Source of the DNA: Wenzhouxiangella sp.
GTDB lineage: Bacteria; Pseudomonadota; Gammaproteobacteria; Xanthomonadales; Wenzhouxiangellaceae
DNA: 64,000 bases
Assembly (NCBI GenBank): GCA_046540955.1
Contig: JBKHEF010000013.1
Span: 1,104 to 65,103 of the forward strand
Direction: 5' to 3'
This document shows, one piece after another, positions 2,785 through 14,522 of this stretch. Made by a program: the position numbers and the translations under genes. Position 1 is the first letter of the stretch; every line of letters starts with the position of its first letter. The notes beneath the pieces are model-generated. The model saw only the letters and a program-made list of their open reading frames with translations, searched no databases and was not told the origin of the DNA.

Positions 2785-5043
2785 TTATGGTTGCGGGTTG
2801 GCCTCAAATTGCAAATGCCGGTGCAAAAAGCGGGCGATCGTTTCGTAGACGTGCACGCGCTGGTTGTCGCCGGTGATGCCGTGTTTTTCGCCCGGATAGG
2901 TCATCAGGTCAAACTGGATGCGCGCTTCCTGCAGTTTTTGCATCAGCATGGTCGAGTGGGTGAACAGCACGTTGTCGTCGGCCATCGGGTGGATCAGCAG
3001 CAGGGGGTCGCTGATCCGGTCGGCCCAGCTCAGTACATTCCCCTTCCGATAGGCTTCGGGCTGGGCCTGCGGGGTGCCGAGGTAGCGCTCGGTGTAATGG
3101 GTGTCGTAGAGCGCCCAGTCGGTGACCGGGGCCACCGCGACGCCGGCGGCAAAGTTGCCCGGCTGCTGGGCCAGGGCCATCAGCGCCAGGTAGCCGCCGT
3201 AGCTCCAGCCGAAGATGCCGATGCGTTCAGGGTCGACGAAAGACTGGCCGCGCAGCCAGTCCAGGCCGATCATCTGGTCGATGATTTCGACCCGGCCCAG
3301 CTGGAGATGGGCTGCATCCTGAAAGGCCTTGCCCTGGCGGACGACGCCGCGGTTGTCGAGTGAGAAAACGATGTAGCCCTGGCGGGCAAAATACTGGTCG
3401 ATCAGCGCCCTGCGCCCCCAGCTGTCGGTGACCAGGCGATGGGTCGGGCCACCATAGACATGGACCAGCACGGGGTAGCGCCGTTGCGGATCAAAGCCGG
3501 CCGGCCGGATCATGCGGTAGCGCAGGGCCTGGCCATCGGGGCCGATCAACTGGCCGAACTCGGTGGCTTGATGGGCGGCCCGGTAAGGCGCGTAGGGATG
3601 GTCGTCATCGAGCTGGTTTTCGACCAGCCATGCCAGGCGCTCTCCGTCGGCCGAGTGCAAGGACAGTTGCTGGGGCTGCCGGGTGCTGGAATAGGTGTCG
3701 ACATAGACCCGGGCGGCGCGGTCCATGGTCACCTCGTGCCAGCCCGGCCGGCGCGAGAGGCGGGTGACGTTTTCAGGCGTTCGGGTCAGCAGGGACTGGC
3801 GGTAGAGATGTTTTTCTTCCGGTGAAACTTCCGCGGCGGTGAAATAGACCAGCCCGAGTTCTTCGTCCACCCCGACCAGTTCGTCAACCGCCCAATCCCC
3901 GGCGGTCAGGCGTCGGATCAGGCCACCGTCCAGGTCATGCAGGTACAAATGCCGGAATCCGTCTTGCTCGGACGACCAGATGAAGGCATCGAGACCATCG
4001 AGGAAGTGCAGGTCGTTGTGCAGGTTGATCCAGGTGTCAGAAGTCTCGGTCAGAACCACCTGCGCAGGGCCGCCGTCAAGCGTTGCGACGACCAACTCCA
4101 GGGTTTGCTGGTCCCGGCTCTGGCGCTGAAAGCTCACACGCTCGCCGTCGGGCAGCCAGGCAACGCGCGGGATGTAGATATCGTCATCTGCGCCCAGGTC
4201 GATGAAGCGGGTGCTGTCATCGGCCAGGTCGATCACGCCCAGGCGGTAGCTGACGTTGGGCGTGCCGGTGAACGGATAGCGTTGCTCGACCAGAGTGATT
4301 TGATCAGCTTCGATCTCGTAGCGGCGGGTTGGCGCGATGGCCGACTCGTCGGTGCGCAGGAACGCGATCCGGCGGCTGTCGGGCGACCACCAGAACCCGC
4401 GCGAGCGGTCCATTTCTTCCTGAGCGATGAACTCGGCCAGACCATTGGCCACGACCTCGTCGCCATCCTCGGTCAGCGCACGGACCTCGCCCGATTCCAG
4501 ATCCGCCACCCATAGGTTGCGCTCGCGCACAAAGGCCACGAAGCGCCCGTCGGGCGAGATGCGCGGGTCGATATCCGCTGCCGCGGCGTCAGTGACCTGG
4601 CGGACCTGGTGCTCTTCGGCCGCCAGATCAAGCAAGTGGATATCGCCGTCCAGGGGAAAGATCAGGTAGCGACCATCGCCTGACCAGCGGTACTCGACGA
4701 TGCCGCTCAAGCCCGAGATCCGGGCCCTCTCCCGCCGGGCCTGCTCGGCAGCGGATAGTTCTCCTTCCTCGGCGACGATACTGTCGGCAGCCACCAGCAG
4801 GCGGGTTTGCTTATCGGCGATGTGGTATTCCCACAGGTCGAGGCGGTCGCGGTCTTCCTCGCTGGCGCGCAGAAAGGTCACCCGGTCGCCGGCCGGTGAC
4901 AGCTCGGCCTGACGCAGGCTGGCTCCCGTCAGATCGGGTGATGCGAAGATGCGCTCGATGGTCAGGTCGGGCTGGGCCGGCGCCTGGACCGACCAGAGCA
5001 GCGCTGCAAGAACAGGCCAGAGCCTGGGGGAAAGAAAAGGCAT
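2785..5043 (-). CDS. Dipeptidyl peptidase IV (S9B), secreted
   Basis: Signal peptide, DPPIV beta-propeller (AQEEMDR..GFWWSPD), GWSYGG nucleophile, ADDNV Asp, EKHG His. Confidence 0.93.
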   Translation of the reverse strand: MPFLSPRLWPVLAALLWSVQAPAQPDLTIERIFASPDLTGASLRQAELSPAGDRVTFLRASEEDRDRLDLWEYHIADKQTRLLVAADSIVAEEGELSAAEQARRERARISGLSGIVEYRWSGDGRYLIFPLDGDIHLLDLAAEEHQVRQVTDAAAADIDPRISPDGRFVAFVRERNLWVADLESGEVRALTEDGDEVVANGLAEFIAQEEMDRSRGFWWSPDSRRIAFLRTDESAIAPTRRYEIEADQITLVEQRYPFTGTPNVSYRLGVIDLADDSTRFIDLGADDDIYIPRVAWLPDGERVSFQRQSRDQQTLELVVATLDGGPAQVVLTETSDTWINLHNDLHFLDGLDAFIWSSEQDGFRHLYLHDLDGGLIRRLTAGDWAVDELVGVDEELGLVYFTAAEVSPEEKHLYRQSLLTRTPENVTRLSRRPGWHEVTMDRAARVYVDTYSSTRQPQQLSLHSADGERLAWLVENQLDDDHPYAPYRAAHQATEFGQLIGPDGQALRYRMIRPAGFDPQRRYPVLVHVYGGPTHRLVTDSWGRRALIDQYFARQGYIVFSLDNRGVVRQGKAFQDAAHLQLGRVEIIDQMIGLDWLRGQSFVDPERIGIFGWSYGGYLALMALAQQPGNFAAGVAVAPVTDWALYDTHYTERYLGTPQAQPEAYRKGNVLSWADRISDPLLLIHPMADDNVLFTHSTMLMQKLQEARIQFDLMTYPGEKHGITGDNQRVHVYETIARFLHRHLQFEANPQP

Positions 5044-5184: not shown

Positions 5185-6549
5185 CTACACTCGGTCATGC
5201 ACCTGCGGCAGCGGATGACGGGTGGTGATGGTTTCCAGGCCATGGGCATTCGGGCCGCGTTCGGAGCGGTATAGCAACCACGAAAACAGCAGACCCAGGG
5301 CAGCCAGGGTGGTATAGAACCACATGCCGGCCGCGTAGCCGGCCGGATTGTCGGGTGCGGCGTTGAAGGTGTCGTTGAGCAGGCCGATGATCGGCGGAAC
5401 AATGGCCCAGCCCAATTGCTGGCACAGCGTCATCATCGCGTACGCCGAGCCCAGGCGACGTTCGTCGACGATGTAGGCGACCGACGGCCACATGACGGCT
5501 GGAATCAGGGCAAACACCGCGCCGAGCAGCAGCATCACGATCAGCAGGGTCAGCGGCACCTGGCCCGAGCCTACGAACGGCACGGTCAGCGTCATGTCCG
5601 GGCCGGGTGGTGCATAGGTGACGATCAGGAACAGCGGCAGCATGACCAGCGAACCTGTGGCCATGAAGAACGAACGTTTGCCGACCCGGTCGACCCACAG
5701 CCCGAAGATCGGCGTGATGAACATGGCCGCCAGCGGCAACAGGCTCGACAGCAGGCCGGCGGCCTGGCGCTCCAGACCGTGGGCCTGCTGGAAGTAGTCG
5801 ATGGCGAAGGTGCGAAACGGAAACACGGTGGAATAGAACACCACGCACAGCGCGACCACGTACCAGTAAGACGGGCTGAAGGCGAACAGATCACGGACGC
5901 TCAGCTTCTCGTGGTCGCCGCCTGGTCCAAGCTGATAGTTGCGCTCGGCCCGCCTCTCCATCAGCCAGTAGAGCAGGGCGGCGGTCACGGTGATGCCGCA
6001 CACCGCGGTGGCCAGCCACAGCGGGTCCTGCCAGTTGGCATACAGCGGGGTGGCGAAACCGGTCGACCAGTCGGCGGTGGTTGAACCGAAGCGTGAAATC
6101 GACAGGTTGATGCCGAAGGCAAAGCTCAGTTCCTTGCCCTTGAACCACTTGGCAATCGCCGTGGTGGCGGCCACGATCAGCGGTTCCGAACCCAGGCCCA
6201 GCATGACGCGGCCGGCCAGGATGGTCTCGTAGCGGGGGGTCAGCGCGGTCAGTGCGGCGGCGGCCAGGCAGACCAGGGCAAACACGAAAATGGCCCGCCG
6301 CGTACCGAAGCGATCGATGATCACGCCGCCGGCCAGCAGGATCGTCAGCGCGGCCAGGTTGTAGCCGGTCGACAGCCAGCCGATCTGCTGGTAGGAAAAA
6401 TCAAGCTGTTCGCGCATCAGGTCGATGACCGGCCCGAGCGCGTCGTAGACGTAGTAATTACCGAACATCGCCAGGCTGACGAACACCAGCACCACCCAAC
6501 GATAGGTCGGTGGCGGCGGCAGGGAATCCAGGCGAGGGTCGTGGGTCAT
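5185..6549 (-). CDS. MFS transporter, MFSD1-like
   Basis: About 12 TM segments, motif A GVIIDRFGTRR, N-terminal MFGNYYVYD resembling MFSD1 TM1. Confidence 0.85.
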   Translation of the reverse strand: MTHDPRLDSLPPPPTYRWVVLVFVSLAMFGNYYVYDALGPVIDLMREQLDFSYQQIGWLSTGYNLAALTILLAGGVIIDRFGTRRAIFVFALVCLAAAALTALTPRYETILAGRVMLGLGSEPLIVAATTAIAKWFKGKELSFAFGINLSISRFGSTTADWSTGFATPLYANWQDPLWLATAVCGITVTAALLYWLMERRAERNYQLGPGGDHEKLSVRDLFAFSPSYWYVVALCVVFYSTVFPFRTFAIDYFQQAHGLERQAAGLLSSLLPLAAMFITPIFGLWVDRVGKRSFFMATGSLVMLPLFLIVTYAPPGPDMTLTVPFVGSGQVPLTLLIVMLLLGAVFALIPAVMWPSVAYIVDERRLGSAYAMMTLCQQLGWAIVPPIIGLLNDTFNAAPDNPAGYAAGMWFYTTLAALGLLFSWLLYRSERGPNAHGLETITTRHPLPQVHDRV

Positions 6550-6934: not shown

Positions 6935-7954
6935 CTATCTGCGATGCGGCGCTGAAGCCTCCGGGTCACACCAGTGGGCGGTCAGCAGGTAGTCGATGGT
7001 CAGGTTGTCGAACAGGGCCGAGCCGGTCGAGATGAACAGCACCGGTTCGGGGCAATCTTTCGGATGTTGCAACAGATGGCCAAGATCGACGATGCGGTGC
7101 CGATCCAGAAGGCTTTCGGAGTCGAAGCGCTTGAGATCGCCCCAGTGTCTGCTGTCATGGGTGTCTACACAGACATTGTAATGAGCGAGCACCTTGGGAT
7201 CGAGTTCGCGTTGCCAGTCGGTGTCGGCGCCGACGCTGATGACGATGCGTGGTTGGTAATCGGAGGCGTCAAACAGCGGCGACTCGCTGTCGGTAGCCAG
7301 GACCAGCGCGTCGGGCCGGCTGGATAGATCTGCGGCCTCGAACGTGCCCGTTTCCAGTTTCGGATTGTGCAGGGAGAGTTGTTCGGCGGCCAGGTGCGCC
7401 CGGCCCGGGGCGCGGTCGCTGAATTCGATCCGGCGGACCGTATCCAGCGTGGCAGCATAGCAGGCCGTGTAGAAGCCGACCCGACCGGCGCCGATGATGG
7501 CCAGGGTTTCACAGTTGGGCAACAGCAGGCGCAGACCCGTGACCGCGCAGGCACCGGTGCGCGCCGAGGACAGAATGCAGCCGGCAAAGCCGGCCTCGAT
7601 GAAGTTTTCGGCGCTGTGCAGGGCAAACGCCTTGCCAACACTGATTTCACCGGGCACGATCTGCCGTGGCCAATTGGTGCCTATGATCTTGACCGTCTTG
7701 CGAACCCGATCCGGGAATCGAACCACGCAGGGCATGACCCTGAAATCGGAGCGCTCTCCGGGATCGATGAACACTGACTTGGCCGGCAACTCGAGTTGCG
7801 CATCGCCGCGGGCAATGGCCTTCAGAGCCGCCAAAAGATGGTCCAGGTAGGCCGCAGGTGCAGCGGTCAGGGCCGCGTGCACCGCCGCATCGTCGAAGAA
7901 CACGTAGGGTTCAGGGTTGATGCGAAGTAGTTGATTGAGGGCGTTGTCGATCAT
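6935..7954 (-). CDS. Ornithine cyclodeaminase / mu-crystallin family protein (divergent)
   Basis: DFRVMP, LSSARTGA, IIGAGRVG Rossmann, ISVGAD, RELD, FISTGSALFD. Confidence 0.85.
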   Translation of the reverse strand: MIDNALNQLLRINPEPYVFFDDAAVHAALTAAPAAYLDHLLAALKAIARGDAQLELPAKSVFIDPGERSDFRVMPCVVRFPDRVRKTVKIIGTNWPRQIVPGEISVGKAFALHSAENFIEAGFAGCILSSARTGACAVTGLRLLLPNCETLAIIGAGRVGFYTACYAATLDTVRRIEFSDRAPGRAHLAAEQLSLHNPKLETGTFEAADLSSRPDALVLATDSESPLFDASDYQPRIVISVGADTDWQRELDPKVLAHYNVCVDTHDSRHWGDLKRFDSESLLDRHRIVDLGHLLQHPKDCPEPVLFISTGSALFDNLTIDYLLTAHWCDPEASAPHRR

Positions 7955-10403
7955 TGCGGTCTGATCTCCTGGTCAGCGCGGTTTGAGGCTCGAAGACCGC
8001 CAGCGCGACCTCTGGCGGCGCCAGCACGAGCACAAGATCGCCGTTGACTGCCTGATCCAATCCGGTCCGGATGGCCTGTGCCCGGTCGGCGAATGTCGTG
8101 ACCTGGCTGGGCAAAGCTCCTGCGGCAAGTACTTTCTGGCGAAAGTAGTCCAGCATCTTTTGCTGCGGGTTGGGACCGGCCCACTCAGGATTACGCTCGA
8201 TGTAGCCGGTGTAGCCGCTGAGCGTGATGGTGGCAAAGCGTTGCGCAAATGCACCGGCCAGCTCATCGATGTGGCAGCGGTGGCGCGCGCCGATGGTCAT
8301 GCAGACCAGGTGCACCCGGCCCGATACCTGCAGTCGATCAACTACTTCGAGCACGCGCTCGACGCCGTCAGGATTCTGGGCAAAGTCACTCAATACCGTG
8401 AACGGGTAGCCGGTAATGAAGTTGTAGCGACCCGGGTTATCGGCAGTGGAGTTGCTAAAGCCGGCAAGCGCCTGGCGGATGCGCGCCGGGTCGATGCCGA
8501 GGGCCCAGGCGGTGGCTGCTGCGAAGCGTGCGTTGAAGCAGTTGCTTTCCAGCAAGCCTTCCATGGTGGCTGGAATTTCAGCCAGAGCCATCAGCGGCGA
8601 CTGCTGTTCGCCCCGGGCCAGTATCAGCCAGTCACCATCCGAACGCCGGTCGACGAAGACGGCTTTTCCGCCCTGGCGGCGATGGGCCAGCAGTTCGGGA
8701 TGCTGCCCGGATTTGGCAACCAGTACCAGGTGCCGGCAGCGCGCGCGAGCGCGCATGTTCAGACACAACGGGTCATCAGCATTGAGCACGATCGACCGCG
8801 TGGCGCGGCCGATCAGGCGTCCTTTGACCTCGGCCATGGCCTCGAGGCTGTCGATGCCGTCTACGCCCAGGTGGTCTGCTCTAACGTTGAGGCAGGTGGC
8901 CACTTCGCAGTGGTCGAAGGCGGTGCCGGTCTTGAGCAGGCCGCCGCGAGCCGTCTCCAAAACCGCCGCGCGAGTGCGGTTGTCGGCCAGCACCATTGCG
9001 GCTCCCGTGACCCCGGCCACATCGCCGTCGATGATACGCTCGCCGCCCAGGAAAGCGCCCTCGGTGGTGGCCAGGCCGACCGCGTCGAACGCCTGTGCCA
9101 GAATGCGAGCGAGCATGCGGCAGGTGGTGGTCTTGCCGTTGGTTCCGGTAACCGCCACGAGCGGTATCCGCGCTCGTTGGCGGTCGGGAAACAGGGTGTC
9201 AACCAGGCAAGCGGCTATCGACCTGCGTCTGGCATGGTCGCCATGGCGCATCAGGTCAGGATCCGGCAGCACGTTAGTGATCACGCAGTTAGCTGCTTCG
9301 GCCGGCCCGGCCGGGTCGACGACGGCCATGTCTACGCCGGCCAGAACGGGCAGCTTGCACACGGCCGCGGCGCGCTCGGCCAGTTCGCGGATCGGTTGGG
9401 AGATCCGGTCGAGGACATCCTCGGTATATGGCGCGCTGGAGACGGCTCGAAGCCGCCCGCCGATGACCAGACAGCGATAGTGCTGCCCTGGTGGCCAGGA
9501 CTCGACCCAGACCCGTCGATGCGGGCCGGCCAGGACATCGAAAGCCGCCGCGACTTCACTGGAGCGGTGCAGCGGGCCCAGCGTATCGGGCGTATTTGAA
9601 AGATGGGGAAACCGCGGCTTGTACAGCGTCCGAACCGCCACCGGATAGCCCAGGCGCTCGGCGGCCCGGATCGCCCGCCGGGCAGAGTTCTGGTTGCCAA
9701 ATTCCAAATCCTGCCGTGGCAAGGGCAGGCCGGCCTGCGCCAGTCTCGGCATCAGCTCGGCCCGGCAGCGAATGGATTCCAGCAGGTGTTCGCTGGCACC
9801 TTCCGGCATGGCCCCGGCCACCAGGCGACGACGACATCCATGGCCAAGCTGGAGCAGGCCCACGCGGATCGGACGGTCCGGCGGCGACGGATCGAAAGGC
9901 TCCTGGTCAAGCCAAAAGGTCGGCAGGCCGGCAGCGTGGGCTGCCTCGCGCACCAGCTTTGCATCGGCATCAAGGGTCCGCGCGGATGCAAAGCGCAAGA
10001 AAGCGGCTGCGCGGTCGAGCAGATCGTCAGGTTCTGAGTTTGTGTCGATGGACAGCAGTTCTGCAGCCAGTTCCCCGGCCCGCAGCGCGCTCAGGCTTTC
10101 CTCCACCGGAAGGGCAATTGCCCAGAGGCACGAACGCCGCTCGACGGTTGTCGTGCCCGCGCCATGGCCGGCCGCCTTGAGCAGGCAGGCCACCAGGCGG
10201 CCGAAAAACTCCATCGGTTCTTCACGATCAGTCGCTGATTGTCCGATGGCCCGCACACCGCACTGTTCCAGCCGCCTATCCAGCTCATCGGCCCGCTTGA
10301 TCGCTGCTTCCAGCAGCGGTCTATTCAGCTCAAACCACGCCACCGGCGGCGGCCCGAAGCTGGAATATCCAGAAACGATGTGACTTGAAAGGATGATTGA
10401 CAC
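7911..10403 (-). CDS. Cyanophycin-synthetase-like protein: degenerate ATP-grasp plus intact Mur-ligase domain
   Basis: LLQLGHG, LGYPVAV, YRCLVIGG, GVDM; then VAVTGTNGKTTT P-loop, VLETARGG, DHLG, NADD, PGRYN, DFAQNP. Confidence 0.85.
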   Translation of the reverse strand: MSIILSSHIVSGYSSFGPPPVAWFELNRPLLEAAIKRADELDRRLEQCGVRAIGQSATDREEPMEFFGRLVACLLKAAGHGAGTTTVERRSCLWAIALPVEESLSALRAGELAAELLSIDTNSEPDDLLDRAAAFLRFASARTLDADAKLVREAAHAAGLPTFWLDQEPFDPSPPDRPIRVGLLQLGHGCRRRLVAGAMPEGASEHLLESIRCRAELMPRLAQAGLPLPRQDLEFGNQNSARRAIRAAERLGYPVAVRTLYKPRFPHLSNTPDTLGPLHRSSEVAAAFDVLAGPHRRVWVESWPPGQHYRCLVIGGRLRAVSSAPYTEDVLDRISQPIRELAERAAAVCKLPVLAGVDMAVVDPAGPAEAANCVITNVLPDPDLMRHGDHARRRSIAACLVDTLFPDRQRARIPLVAVTGTNGKTTTCRMLARILAQAFDAVGLATTEGAFLGGERIIDGDVAGVTGAAMVLADNRTRAAVLETARGGLLKTGTAFDHCEVATCLNVRADHLGVDGIDSLEAMAEVKGRLIGRATRSIVLNADDPLCLNMRARARCRHLVLVAKSGQHPELLAHRRQGGKAVFVDRRSDGDWLILARGEQQSPLMALAEIPATMEGLLESNCFNARFAAATAWALGIDPARIRQALAGFSNSTADNPGRYNFITGYPFTVLSDFAQNPDGVERVLEVVDRLQVSGRVHLVCMTIGARHRCHIDELAGAFAQRFATITLSGYTGYIERNPEWAGPNPQQKMLDYFRQKVLAAGALPSQVTTFADRAQAIRTGLDQAVNGDLVLVLAPPEVALAVFEPQTALTRRSDRNDRQRPQSTTSHQP

Positions 10404-10482: not shown

Positions 10483-12762
10483 TCAGCGCGAAACCAGGGT
10501 TATGCGGCTGGCCGTGGTGCGTTCTATCGCCTCCCGGGACCACGGCACGGTCCAGGGTTCGCCGTTGAGGAAATCACCCAGGAAGCTGTCGAAATGGGGG
10601 CTGAAGGGGTTGCCGGACTGGCCCATGGCCAGGTTCAGGGTGAAGCTGTCGGGATCATTCCAGTCCAGCACGAAGCGCATCGAGGCCCCGGCCCGGGCCT
10701 GCCAGTTGGCGGTTTCGGTATCGAAGCGGCTGAAGGTGGCGTTCAGGCTGGCGCTGTCGCCGCCGAAGGGAAACGGGCCACGGCTCAGGTTCAGCCAGCG
10801 GTCGAGCAGCGCGGACCGGGCCAGCGGGTGGCGAACGTGCAGGGTCTGGATCATCCCCAGCGGTCGGGCACCGGCCCGTAGCGCATCGTCGAGCGCCAGG
10901 GCGGCGGCTTCATCGCGGTCACGGGCGGCAAGGTCGGGTGCAGTTTCGCCATCGCGCAGCCAGCGGTCGGTGAGCGGGCGCAGGGTGCGCCAGTCCGGGC
11001 GAGCGGATTCGTGGCTCGAGTCGAACAGCGCGCGTGGCAGGTAACCCCACCAGCGCGCGAACAGGCCGGCAACATCCGATTCGATCCGCATGTCGCCGTC
11101 CCAGCGGCGCAGGTCATCGGCGATCACGCTGCGCCCGCTGCGCTCGGCGGTCTCGGCCAGCCAGTCCTTGAAGGCCATGGCGCGGTCGGAGGTCTGATCG
11201 AGCTGGAAGCGGGTCATGTCGGCCTGGTCGAAGCGCTCCTGGCTGGTCAGCAGTTCGGTGGCGCGGCGGATTCGGTCCTGGTAGTAGAAACCGGGCAGGG
11301 CATAGGGCCAGTCTGTTCCGGCCGCCAGGTTGTTGGCATTGGCCAGCCAGCCCTGTGGGGGGTCGAGCGCAAACGGCCGCGCTGCCGGTGGCTGGAAGCC
11401 GCGCCAGTGATAGCGCGGATCGGCCCCGTCGAGCACGCGGAAGAATTCCCGATGCTCGCGCACAGGGACCGGGGTGGACTGTACGTAGCCTATATGACCG
11501 TTGCGGTCGGAATAGCTCCAGTTGACCGACAACGCACCCATGTCCCCGGCAGCGGCCCGAAACTGGGCAAAGTTTTCGGCCCGGTTGATCGCCAGTCCCT
11601 GGCCGATCAGCGGTGCGATCGGCAGCTCGAAGCCGGCCCAGCCCAGGACCAGCACTTCGCTGGCATTGGCCTCGATGACCTTGCCGAACGGCGCATATTG
11701 GTAGGTCTGGACCTGGGCTGTTTCCTGGCCGCGCACAGTGATGCGTTCTTCGCGTTCCAGCAGGCTGACCCAGCCTTCGGGACCGAGGACGCGATCGGGC
11801 TGGTCCGGGTTGCGCTTGAGGCGATACAGCTCGAACAGGTCGACCGGCGCCACGGTGAACGCCCAGGCGATGCGGCCATTGTGGCCCATGGCCACGAACG
11901 GCAGGCCGGGCGCGGTCACGCCGACGACATCGAGTGACTCCTCCGAGTGCAGCCCGGCGGCATACCACAGGCCAGGCGCGGTGTTGAATTCCAGGTGTGG
12001 GTCCGAGGCATGCAGGGCCGCGCCGCTGGTCGAGTGCTGCGGTGCGATCACCCAGGTGTTGGAGGCTTCGGTCAGGCGCAGGGCGGGAATCGTGGTCATG
12101 CCGCCGGCAGTCAGCTGTTCCAGCCACCTCCCGGCCTCGGGACCGAAGCTTTCGGTCACGGCCAGGTAGGCATCGCGGATCTGCTGGACCAGGGTGAGGG
12201 GATAAAAGGTCTGGTAGTAGGCGATGCTCAGCACATCGGCCCGGGTCCAGGGTCTGGGCCGGTGCCCAAGCACAACAAACTCGGGTGGCAGTCGATCGGT
12301 GGTTGCGATGCGCTGGTTGACCCCGGCCAGGTAGGCATCGAGCAGGTCAGCGGTCGCGGGATCCAGCTGTGGCGGGTCTTCCGCCATCCGGCGGGCAAAG
12401 CCGAAACCGCGATGCAGGACATCAAGCTCGATGGCCGCAGGACCGAAAAGTTCGGCCAGTTCGCCGGCGGCCATGCGCCGGATCAGTTCCATCTGGAACA
12501 GTCTTTCCCCGGCATGCAGCCAGCCCAGTGCTATCAGCACATCGCGATCGGTCTGGCCGTGAATTCGTGGAATGCCGCGGTCGTCGAACAGGATTTCAAC
12601 CTGATGGCCCAGGCTTTCGACCCGAACCTGGCCCGCGTAGGGCATCTGCGACTGGGCCAGCCACAGCCGTCCGCCGAACCAGGCGGCCGCGAGCAGGACG
12701 AACAGACTGATCAGGCTGACCCAGAAGCTGCGGGCAAGGATGTTGCGGGTGCCGGTGCTCAT
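10483..12762 (-). CDS. Penicillin acylase family Ntn-hydrolase (S45), N-terminal membrane anchor
   Basis: DDRGIPRI, LHAGERLFQMELIRR, beta-chain SNTW nucleophile, ASDPHL, GHNGRIAWAFT, LANANN, GQSGNPFSPHF. Start reassigned to MSTG at 12762. Confidence 0.9.
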   Translation of the reverse strand: MSTGTRNILARSFWVSLISLFVLLAAAWFGGRLWLAQSQMPYAGQVRVESLGHQVEILFDDRGIPRIHGQTDRDVLIALGWLHAGERLFQMELIRRMAAGELAELFGPAAIELDVLHRGFGFARRMAEDPPQLDPATADLLDAYLAGVNQRIATTDRLPPEFVVLGHRPRPWTRADVLSIAYYQTFYPLTLVQQIRDAYLAVTESFGPEAGRWLEQLTAGGMTTIPALRLTEASNTWVIAPQHSTSGAALHASDPHLEFNTAPGLWYAAGLHSEESLDVVGVTAPGLPFVAMGHNGRIAWAFTVAPVDLFELYRLKRNPDQPDRVLGPEGWVSLLEREERITVRGQETAQVQTYQYAPFGKVIEANASEVLVLGWAGFELPIAPLIGQGLAINRAENFAQFRAAAGDMGALSVNWSYSDRNGHIGYVQSTPVPVREHREFFRVLDGADPRYHWRGFQPPAARPFALDPPQGWLANANNLAAGTDWPYALPGFYYQDRIRRATELLTSQERFDQADMTRFQLDQTSDRAMAFKDWLAETAERSGRSVIADDLRRWDGDMRIESDVAGLFARWWGYLPRALFDSSHESARPDWRTLRPLTDRWLRDGETAPDLAARDRDEAAALALDDALRAGARPLGMIQTLHVRHPLARSALLDRWLNLSRGPFPFGGDSASLNATFSRFDTETANWQARAGASMRFVLDWNDPDSFTLNLAMGQSGNPFSPHFDSFLGDFLNGEPWTVPWSREAIERTTASRITLVSR

Positions 12763-12840
12763 GGGCGGCAAGAATAGCGGATCATGCCCGCCAGGTTTGC
12801 CTATAATTTCGCAACTTCCCTGCCCGATACCGAGTCCGCC

Positions 12841-13407
12841 ATGCCCCGAGTTGCCGAAATCAAGCGCGGCCAGGTGGTCGAACACGATGCCACGGTCTAT
12901 GCCGTGCGCCAGATCGACCGCTCCGCTCCCACCGCCCGTGGCGGCGGCACCCTGTATCGTTTCAAGCTCGAATCCATTCCCGGCGGCGACAAGCGCGAGT
13001 TGACCTTCAAGGGCGATGATGTGCTCAAGGAAGCCGACCTGGTCCGGCGCCTGAGCGAATTCTCCTACCGCGATGCCGACGGCTTCGTGTTCATGGACGG
13101 CGAGGACTTCAGCCAGTACGTGCTCTCGGCCGAAGATGTCGGCGATGCCGCCGACTACCTGCTGGAAGGCCAGGATGGGATCTATGTGCTGATCATCGAC
13201 AGCCAGCCGGTGGCCATTCAGCTGCCCCAGTCGGTGGTCCTGGAAGTGGCCGATACGGCGCCGGTGATGAAGGGAGCGACCGCGTCGCGCTCGGCCAAGC
13301 CGGCCCGGCTGGAGACCGGTGTCGACGTGATGGTGCCCGATTACATTACCCCGGGCGAGAAGATCAAGGTCAATACCGAGACCGGTGAATTCATGAGCCG
13401 CGCCTGA
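12841..13407 (+). CDS. efpL: Elongation factor P-like protein EfpL (YeiP)
   Basis: Tip loop APTARG, C-terminal KPARLETG...VPDYI..GEKIKVNTETGEFMSRA. Confidence 0.9.
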   Translation: MPRVAEIKRGQVVEHDATVYAVRQIDRSAPTARGGGTLYRFKLESIPGGDKRELTFKGDDVLKEADLVRRLSEFSYRDADGFVFMDGEDFSQYVLSAEDVGDAADYLLEGQDGIYVLIIDSQPVAIQLPQSVVLEVADTAPVMKGATASRSAKPARLETGVDVMVPDYITPGEKIKVNTETGEFMSRA

Positions 13408-14522
13408 TGGCCGGTGCCGATTCGATCGATCCGCGCCTGAAGGCGCTGCGCGAGGAACTCGACGAAGTCGATGCCGGACTGGTCGACCTGGCCGCGCAGC
13501 GCCAGCGCATCGTCGCCGATATTGGCCGGATCAAGCAGGGGACCGGCCGCCAGGTGCGCGATTTCCGGCGCGAACGCGAAGTGCTCGACCGGGTTCGTGC
13601 GCGGGCCGAACAGCGCGGCCTGGACCCGGATGTGGCAGAGGATCTGCTCAAGCGGCTGATCGATGCCTCGCTGACCCGCCAGGAGCAGGATCGGGTGCGC
13701 GCGGCTGGTCGCGGCGAAGGCCGCCAGGCCCTGGTCATCGGTGGTGCCGGGCTGCTCGGTCGGTGGCTGGTGGCCTTTCTGGAATCTCAGGGCTACGGCG
13801 TCGTGGTGGCCGATCCGGCCGTCGATCAGTCGCTGCCCGACAGTTACCGGGACTGGCGCGAGGCGCCGCTGGATGTCGAACTGGTTGTCGTTTCCACCCC
13901 CCCGAAGGCCAGCGCCGCAATCATCGAGGCGCTGGCAGATCGCCGGGTTCCCGGGCTGGTGTTCGATGTCGGCTCGATCAAGTCGCCGCTGATTCCAGCC
14001 CTGCGTTCAGCCGCCCGGGCTGGCCTGAACATCTGTTCGATTCACCCGATGTTCGGCCCGGATACCCGCTTGCTGTCGGGTCGTCATGTGCTGCTGATGG
14101 ACGTGGGTAATCGCACGGCGGTCGAGGCTGCCGGCGCCCTGTTCATCGATACCATGGCCGAAGTCGTCGAGGTGGCACTGGATGAGCACGACCGGCTGAT
14201 GGCGCTGGTTCTGGGCCTGTCGCATGCCTTGAACATCGCGTTTTTCACCGCCCTGGTCCGCTCCGGCATCGAAGCCGGTCAATTGGCCGGGATTTCATCG
14301 ACCACCTTCAAGCGCCAGCTTGAGATTGCCCGCGATGTGGCGGCCGAAAACCCCGATCTCTACCATGAAATCCAGCGTTTGAACGCCCACGGCGGACTGG
14401 CCCGCCGGGCCCTGGTCGAAGCCGTGGAGCTGTTGTCACTGGCCAGTGATGCCGACGATGCAAGCGCCTTTACCGAATTGATGCAGCAGGGCCGGCGCTA
14501 TCTCGAGGGACTGAGCCGCTGA
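13407..14522 (+). CDS. tyrA: Bifunctional chorismate mutase / prephenate dehydrogenase
   Basis: N-terminal CM2 (LREELDEVD...RDFRRE), IGGAGLLG Rossmann, DVGSIK, SIHPMFGP, EHDRLM. Confidence 0.88.
   Translation: MAGADSIDPRLKALREELDEVDAGLVDLAAQRQRIVADIGRIKQGTGRQVRDFRREREVLDRVRARAEQRGLDPDVAEDLLKRLIDASLTRQEQDRVRAAGRGEGRQALVIGGAGLLGRWLVAFLESQGYGVVVADPAVDQSLPDSYRDWREAPLDVELVVVSTPPKASAAIIEALADRRVPGLVFDVGSIKSPLIPALRSAARAGLNICSIHPMFGPDTRLLSGRHVLLMDVGNRTAVEAAGALFIDTMAEVVEVALDEHDRLMALVLGLSHALNIAFFTALVRSGIEAGQLAGISSTTFKRQLEIARDVAAENPDLYHEIQRLNAHGGLARRALVEAVELLSLASDADDASAFTELMQQGRRYLEGLSR

Follow-up and report, generated by a model that had tools for sequence, protein, structure and literature searches.

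Introduction

Two routes to cyanophycin are known, one through CphA1, which has three active sites, and one through CphA2, which uses the G site only. In CphA1, the N domain carries a metallopeptidase site composed of HxxEH and C59 (PMC9262961), Asp is recognised by N394 and S396 together with R323 and R458, and in the tetramer the M core touches the N domain and three G cores (PMC9427784). In CphA2, the G domain is active, whereas the M domain is truncated and inactive (PMC10273328). In this study, we describe cphL, a gene found in a 64-kb stretch of DNA from Wenzhouxiangella sp. (contig JBKHEF010000013.1; the whole stretch is called the window below), and its product, CphL. Like CphA2 (7TA5, 8FXI), CphL is a derivative of CphA1 with three domains and, it appears, one catalytic site. 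It is nevertheless the opposite of CphA2, which keeps G, whereas in CphL the M motifs are kept and the G and N motifs are gone. An earlier note on this DNA had proposed such an inverted architecture, and our analysis agrees with it.

The explanation that we favour, and to which we give a somewhat better than even chance, is that CphL is an ATP-dependent amide ligase that would work with its M domain alone on a pseudo-enzyme scaffold. It would form a two-gene module with an enzyme of the ornithine cyclodeaminase (OCD)/mu-crystallin family, and the module would not serve cyanophycin. A literature search on CphA-like proteins and on cyanophycin together with ornithine cyclodeaminase did not find the CphL architecture described. 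What is new is the reverse of CphA2 with a partner enzyme of its own, independent of cyanophycin genes.

Results

The M domain and its lid

The M-domain residues of CphL were mapped onto functionally tested residues of TeCphA1. K499, T500, T522, E558 and R731 of TeCphA1 are all present (T522 is T447 in CphL; the others are listed in Table 1), and the single difference is H748, which is Gln676. The catalytic set G420-T427, T447, E483, D510, H511, K527, N541, R659, D673, A675 and N677 is invariant in 13 members of the family. K527 is at the position of the carbamylated Lys of Mur ligases. The earlier note had listed GTNGKTTT, ETARGG, DHLG and DxAxNP as retained; all four are present, but the change of His to Gln within the last was overlooked. 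Mur_ligase_M and Mur_ligase_C are shared by CphL with the Mur ligases MurE, MurD and MurF and with FPGS and MurT. The common set of P-loop, Glu, His and carbamyl-Lys would imply the same acyl-phosphate mechanism.

The lid differs from that of CphA1. GARHRCH stands in CphL for GDRRDED of CphA1 and ERNPEW for CDDHRRGR, and in more general form the two motifs read GARHRxH and NPE[WY]. The xNPE motif is at the position of the DNPR motif of MurE. At the CphA1 lid positions D/R/D/E/D, CphL has A/H/R/x/H. Because the acidic residues that face Arg in CphA1 are thus Ala, Arg and His, the incoming amine of CphL is probably not arginine, and a neutral or acidic amine would fit.

FPGS and PgsB add acidic amino acids through the side-chain carboxylate, and Mur-family enzymes can act iteratively. 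The acidic-to-basic change in the lid pocket is what such an enzyme might show, as is the preservation under selection of an architecture that handles a polymer in CphA. CphL could then be an iterative polymerase that works with M only, lengthens a chain by acidic amino acids linked through the side-chain carboxylate and keeps this chain on the N/G scaffold. The best solved-structure match of the partner enzyme, an iminosuccinate reductase, makes Asp and would suit this idea; the match is, however, weak (34 bits), and no export or degradation genes are conserved near the gene pair in the contexts compared. We regard this polymerase as quite improbable.

Overall architecture of CphL

The cphL open reading frame (ORF) encodes 830 residues with no internal stop; its GTG start is backed by N-terminal alignment with relatives. 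Among Pfam families, only two were detected above threshold, both in the M domain: Mur_ligase_M (PF08245; 62.9 bits, cut-off 24) and Mur_ligase_C (PF02875; 47.2 bits, cut-off 28.4). No ATP-grasp family of Pfam reached its threshold in CphL, the best being R2K_3 with 18 bits against a cut-off of 26.3, unlike canonical relatives, which show several ATP-grasp matches. Scores against the NCBIfam models of cyanophycin synthetase were also below the cut-offs (TIGR02068, 392.9 bits against 850; NF010623, 380 against 877), and nearly all of the TIGR02068 score came from profile positions 392-847. In comparison with solved structures, residues 321-793 matched the M domain of CphA1 (7lgn) with 232 bits and residues 63-322 aligned weakly to CphA1 with 33 bits. 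The top MurE chains, 7b6o, 7b53 and 1e8c, gave 36-39 bits. Residues 1-412 match the N and G domains of CphA1 and not Mur domain 1, which binds UDP-MurNAc; CphL thus has CphA-type domains where Mur ligases have their UDP-binding N-terminal domain.

A structure of CphL was predicted by AlphaFold2 with an input alignment of 13 family sequences (predicted local distance difference test, 88; predicted template modelling score, 0.84). In Foldseek, the whole chain gave template modelling (TM) scores of 0.77 to TeCphA1 (7wae_A) and 0.72 to SuCphA1 (7lgj_A), over 914-916 alignment columns with gaps included. The scores to CphA2 (7ta5) and to MurE were 0.45 and about 0.36, respectively. In the model the G core fold is kept and aligns to the G core of CphA1 despite the absence of an ATP-grasp profile match. 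The G-like domain has about 247 residues as compared with 326 in TeCphA1. The superposition over the full length indicates that CphL, as modelled, has the complete N-G-M architecture of CphA1 (7WAE, 7LG5, 7LGN), with which it also shares the residues for ATP, Mg and carbamyl-Lys in M.

Motifs lost from the N and G domains

Motifs of CphL were compared with the canonical CphA1 of its own genome, with CphA1 sequences in the PDB and with 13 or more family members. YPVAVRTLY at residues 253-261 corresponds to FPVVLKP of CphA1, and the position of the catalytic Lys is Arg258. The glycine-rich loop GNHGRGV of CphA1 is replaced by KPRFPHLS. At the former metal site, CphL has ITNVLPDPDL for ICEINAGPGF of CphA1, in which the metal ligands Glu and Asn have become N377 and L379; V378, P380, D381, P382 and L384 of this segment are invariant in the family. 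G-omega, a region of about 70 residues that includes the Asp-binding loop with N394 and S396, is missing. The HMMER alignment leaps from CphA1 residue 304 to 378 at CphL residues 321-322, and this gap falls between the strand RLLVVNGELVAA and NISTGG. All of the Asp-binding residues R323, N394, S396 and R458 of CphA1 are absent. The only G-site residue that is kept is R310 (R309 in CphA1), which is invariant in the family; E301 and D358 are conserved there as well. In the N domain, EFFGRLVA occupies the place of HxxEH, and the Cys ligand is likewise missing.

These substitutions are conserved features of the family and are not due to chance. Most of what the earlier note had read here is borne out: the catalytic G residues are not retained in the alignment, the large insert is absent and EFFGRLVA does replace HxxEH at residues 65-72. 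Two readings needed correction. The strand YPVAVRTLY was right, but the Lys described as lost is an exchange for Arg at a position that varies between Lys and Arg across the family; and both metal ligands are indeed gone from ITNVLPDP, but the register was one residue off. The description of both sites as dead is sound for the motifs, and their inactivity is a likely reading of the sequence.

Rarity, tree and selection

Residues 1-400 of CphL were compared with 5.8 billion proteins in a word-indexed search, which gave about 14 clusters with 36-78% identity; one of them, from Wenzhouxiangella, is annotated as 'Mur ligase family protein' and nothing further. An exhaustive phmmer search with residues 1-405 (N and G) against 1.84 billion representatives at 50% identity gave 26 clusters at E<=1e-30 and 74 at E<=1e-10. 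When genome contigs were scanned with the family alignment, only canonical CphA1 loci were found, the back-translated patterns being a generic P-loop and ETARGG. The CphL family is rare yet conserved, with 94 invariant columns among sequences that are 39-78% identical.

A tree and a motif table resolve clades A, B and C and canonical CphA1. Clade A, which includes CphL, shows VxPDPxL without exception where the metal site used to be and is divided into type 1, which has the lid motifs G(A/S)RH(R/K)xH and xNPE(W/Y) and is the subclade with the OCD partner, and type 2, which has a CphA1-like lid. Clade B (about 820-850 residues) includes a second paralogue of the source genome, and clade C is a further degenerate clade of about 810-930 residues. 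Long members with G-omega (886-898 residues) and short members without it are both found in clade A, and the short forms sit in at least three separate branches. Judged by its distribution on the tree, G-omega therefore appears to have disappeared from this clade in at least three independent events, and repeated loss would be expected if the enzyme could already do without catalysis by G.

The ratio of nonsynonymous to synonymous substitution rates (dN/dS), calculated for four pairs by the pairwise Nei-Gojobori method, was 0.23-0.41 in the N domain, 0.21-0.28 in the G-like domain and 0.12-0.28 in the M domain. Since the ratio is low in every domain, the degenerate N and G-like domains are under purifying selection. 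Homologues are conserved and not randomly degraded, and a pseudogene reading was rejected on these ratios. More broadly, one may suppose that cphL is a non-functional remnant of a cphA duplication, as the loss of many catalytic motifs and the rarity of the family would allow. We consider this highly improbable in view of the intact frame, the range of 0.12-0.41 across all domains, the invariant columns, the conserved partner gene and the confident fold prediction. The proposal in the earlier note that the dead G and N domains serve as a scaffold fits both the selection on them (0.2-0.4) and the CphA1-like fold (TM 0.77).

Two side observations concern relatives. Those of clade B are widespread in the order. 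P0017 (867 residues) has the opposite mixture, with a largely canonical G domain (VKP and E-x-N), a degenerate M P-loop (TGDVGKTGT) and loss of DYAHNP, and resembles a full-length route toward the CphA2 condition.

The OCD/mu-crystallin partner gene

The end of cphL is overlapped by a gene for a protein of the OCD/mu-crystallin family, which begins with ATG preceded by a good Shine-Dalgarno sequence, AGGAG. The earlier note missed this overlapping partner, and two other loci that are relevant, on contigs C5 and C67, lay outside the window. The partner protein matches PF02423 with 47.8 bits (cut-off 24). Direct reading of its sequence shows the Rossmann GxGxxG (IIGAGRVG), a Lys in VKIIGTN, an Arg in SSARTGA and GADxxxxxELD, motifs that it shares with BhcD (6RQA), AlaDH (1OMO) and ornithine cyclodeaminase. 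Its best match among solved structures was the iminosuccinate reductase BhcD (6rqa; 34 bits), and archaeal AlaDH (1omo) gave about 30 bits. No NCBIfam equivalog came near its cut-off, the best score being 63 bits against 266. By these comparisons the partner protein is remote from all characterised members of the OCD/mu-crystallin family and forms a subfamily of its own.

An OCD gene adjoins and overlaps cphL in seven of eight type-1 contexts (the window, L122, L009, L011, L013, L014 and L129), and a type-2 member is without one. With more than 120 clusters at an identity of at least 45%, the OCD subfamily far exceeds the CphL family in size. In other phyla, members with 46-58% identity pair with PaaK/CapK-like adenylating ligases; the OCD gene and the gene for this adenylate-forming ligase are tail-to-tail in three lineages, among them Desulfuromonadaceae and a betaproteobacterium (Table 1). 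More distant gammaproteobacterial homologues (L133-L135) include one more with a CapK-like neighbour, in high-GC DNA where naive ORF calling is noisy. Because the subfamily, distinct within its family, repeatedly accompanies carboxylate-activating ligases, we infer that the OCD-like enzyme either provides the amine that enters an amide bond or acts on the amide once it has formed. The OCD/PaaK-CapK pair is a conserved unnamed pair, and in Desulfuromonadaceae and the betaproteobacterium it is followed by FecR-domain proteins.

Relation to cyanophycin metabolism

Neither a cyanophycinase nor a second cphA was found in the window, as the earlier note had said, and the genome has both on contig C5. 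At C5:68991-74239 (L001/L003) there is a complete cyanophycin locus composed of a cyanophycinase gene (258 bits), cphA1 (1128 bits, with HxxEH, GNHGRG and ExN intact) and, adjoining cphA1, a gene for a paralogue with N and M only (552 residues; C5:68991-70661). cphA1 with such an N+M neighbour occurs in about 10 of 31 genomes of the genus. These paralogues of about 550 residues resemble CphL in having an active-looking M domain and no functional G, and CphL scored 143 bits against that of its own genome. In the paralogues, however, G is absent entirely and the gene lies beside cphA1 and the cyanophycinase gene, whereas CphL keeps a folded G-like domain and is paired with OCD. The second degenerate CphA-like paralogue of the source genome (C67:1128-3608, L004; 826 residues, clade B) keeps the M P-loop intact, along with ESTRGG and DYAHNP, and its G motifs have decayed further (VWVETEH, LDFDLNPRL). 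It has no OCD neighbour, and a kinase-like ORF of 246 residues lies alongside.

Since the source genome has a cyanophycinase, cphA1 and the N+M paralogue, CphL might act in trans on cyanophycin. In this scenario it would dock on the cyanophycin or poly-Asp made by the CphA1 of contig C5 and attach a residue other than arginine that comes from the OCD-like enzyme. In CphA1 the polymer is gripped by the N domain on one side and the M core on the other, and CphL keeps the N-domain fold of CphA1 and R310. Three congeners nevertheless speak against it: G038 (99% complete), G225 and G223 have a long-form cphL-ocd pair and lack canonical cphA1 and cyanophycinase. In addition, cphL never adjoins cph genes in the contexts examined, and other residues stand in for the acidic ones of the CphA1 lid. 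We thus judge the decoration of cyanophycin to be rather unlikely. The same three congeners show that the cphL-ocd cassette does not depend on cyanophycin metabolism, and they also remove the alternative that CphL is an inactive partner of a canonical cphA elsewhere in the genome.

Discussion

We infer from these results an active M site, an inactive G site and a task divided with the OCD-like enzyme. In the favoured mechanism, the M domain would use ATP to turn a carboxylate of the substrate into an acyl-phosphate and would then join this to an amine, such as the amino group of an amino acid. Having lost the chemistry of the peptidase and of ATP-grasp, the N-like and G-like domains would be a scaffold for oligomerisation, for holding the substrate or for both. 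The translationally coupled OCD/mu-crystallin enzyme, which is expected to depend on NAD(P), would make an unusual amine substrate or process the amide product, so that the two genes form a self-contained module. The product is probably an amide-linked amino-acid compound; it would not be ordinary cyanophycin, and the module would work without canonical CphA1. As for the acceptor, the earlier note had suggested a pre-formed polymer of carboxylates, a cyanophycin primer or a UDP-MurNAc-peptide, and our analysis gave no support to these.

Several observations weigh against this explanation. TeCphA1 H748, the His in DYAHNP that contacts the gamma-phosphate, is Gln676 in the subclade of CphL, and with this Gln the activity of the M domain may not be guaranteed. 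MurF-type ligases are also without this His. One type-1 member, P0014, which is on a contig of 4.9 kb, has no adjoining OCD gene. In clade A the former active site always carries VxPDPxL, which hints at a function beyond plain scaffolding. Finally, the long relatives keep G-omega, have Asp where the metal-binding Glu would be and carry Lys or Arg at the Lys position; given these features and the invariant R310, residual or altered binding or catalysis at the G site may persist.

The features of the long forms, the conservation of R310, E301 and D358 and the invariant motif at the former active site may even be taken to mean that the G-like domain is an active, non-canonical ATP-grasp and that CphL builds some other polymer with two active sites. 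However, no member has the glycine-rich loop, and Val or Leu takes the place of the second metal ligand. In CphL itself the first metal ligand is Asn and G-omega is deleted, a loss that appears to have occurred at least three times independently, and no ATP-grasp hidden Markov model reaches threshold. An active G site is thus, in our view, quite unlikely.

A bolder extension of the favoured explanation is that cphL-ocd is a mobile two-gene pathway to a metabolite not described before, either peptide-like or a poly(amino acid). The M site alone would act iteratively on the CphA scaffold, as the mirror of CphA2, with an acidic or non-standard monomer supplied by an OCD-like imine reductase or cyclodeaminase. 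We think this unlikely; if it is true, the product might serve halophilic Wenzhouxiangella and its relatives as an osmoprotectant or stress compound.

If the amide ligase explanation is correct, a conserved clade with decayed G and N domains and an intact M domain would mean that evolution has put the CphA scaffold to use outside cyanophycin metabolism. CphL would then be a natural example of pseudo-enzyme domains that are retained as architecture. As a putative new Mur-type amide ligase whose lid differs from that of CphA1, it may be relevant to the engineering of cyanophycin-like polymers. The cphL-ocd pair also offers an entry point to a sizeable unnamed OCD subfamily that recurs with carboxylate-activating ligases.

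Table 1. Coordinates of cphL, its domains and motifs, and neighbouring or related genes. Positions are those of the window, except in the last row, where they are those of the loci named.
Feature	Position	Strand	Description	Basis
cphL	7911..10403	-	830-residue CphA-like ligase: N-like, degenerate G-like and intact M domain	ORF call
N-like domain	9909..10403	-	residues 1-165; without HxxEH/Cys metallopeptidase site	alignment
G-like pseudo-ATP-grasp domain	9168..9908	-	residues 166-412; without G-omega	alignment
M domain (Mur-ligase core and lid)	8004..9167	-	residues 413-800	Pfam, alignment
EFFGRLVA	10188..10211	-	residues 65-72; replaces G-HxxEH-V of CphA1	alignment
YPVAVRTLYKPRFPHLS	9597..9647	-	residues 253-269; Lys to Arg258, glycine-rich phosphate loop replaced	alignment
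ITNVLPDPDL	9252..9281	-	residues 375-384; E-x-N to N-x-L	alignment
P-loop GTNGKTTT	9123..9146	-	residues 420-427; K424/T425 = TeCphA1 K499/T500	alignment
ETARGG	8940..8957	-	residues 483-488; E483 = Mg ligand E558 of TeCphA1	alignment
DHLG and AEVKG	8820..8876	-	DHLG, residues 510-513; K527 in AEVKG	alignment
PGRYN and DFAQNP	8370..8435	-	R659 = TeCphA1 R731; DFAQNP, residues 673-678, Q676 for H748	alignment
Type-1 lid motifs	8181..8291	-	GARHRCH, residues 705-711; ERNPEW, residues 736-741	alignment
OCD/mu-crystallin-family partner gene	6935..7954	-	339 residues; shares 44 nt with the end of cphL	PF02423
Penicillin-amidase-family (Ntn hydrolase) gene	10483-12885	-	800 residues; 79 nt upstream of cphL, same strand	
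MFS transporter	5185-6549	-	downstream of ocd after a 385-nt gap	
DPP-IV/S9 peptidase	2785-5043	-	downstream of ocd, beyond the MFS transporter	
OCD/PaaK-CapK pairs	L130 9001-11392; L131 9001-11345; L132 9001-12741		two ligases in tandem in L132	

Flanking genes and mobility of the cassette

All neighbours of cphL-ocd other than the OCD gene differ between contexts. In Wenzhouxiangella L013 and L014, the pair is flanked by a plant-type gshA and a gene resembling PGM, and in G038 it sits between gshA and the PGM gene. In the source genome, the same two genes abut directly on contig C17. The cassette therefore moves as a unit and was inserted between gshA and PGM in the other lineage. In long-form relatives, the plant-type gshA (TIGR01436, 655 bits) lies 8 nt upstream, which was the basis for considering a role in replacing glutathione synthetase or in modifying glutathione. 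This candidate was rejected as the main explanation; the link to gshA is positional, because the gshA-PGM junction is the insertion site and gshB is present.

A penicillin amidase gene and an MFS transporter gene flank cphL-ocd in the window and in its closest relative, L122. They were rejected as members of the pathway, as they are syntenic in L122 only and the other contexts differ. In other relatives the position of the penicillin amidase is taken by an alpha/beta hydrolase, and the upstream hydrolase may or may not matter. As to the downstream side, the L122 locus, the only one in which the MFS transporter is syntenic, stops inside the transporter gene, before any position for a peptidase. 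The MFS transporter and the DPP-IV/S9 peptidase of the window are probably a separate unit.

The alpha/beta hydrolase gene is found in the metagenomic contigs L009 and L011, where the cassette is also flanked by genes for LEA_2 and a Na+/H+ exchanger (11473-13414). A gene for a cation/H+ antiporter-like protein lies upstream in a third lineage, L128 (2-991). These neighbours give a weak hint of a link between cphL-ocd and osmotic or desiccation stress.

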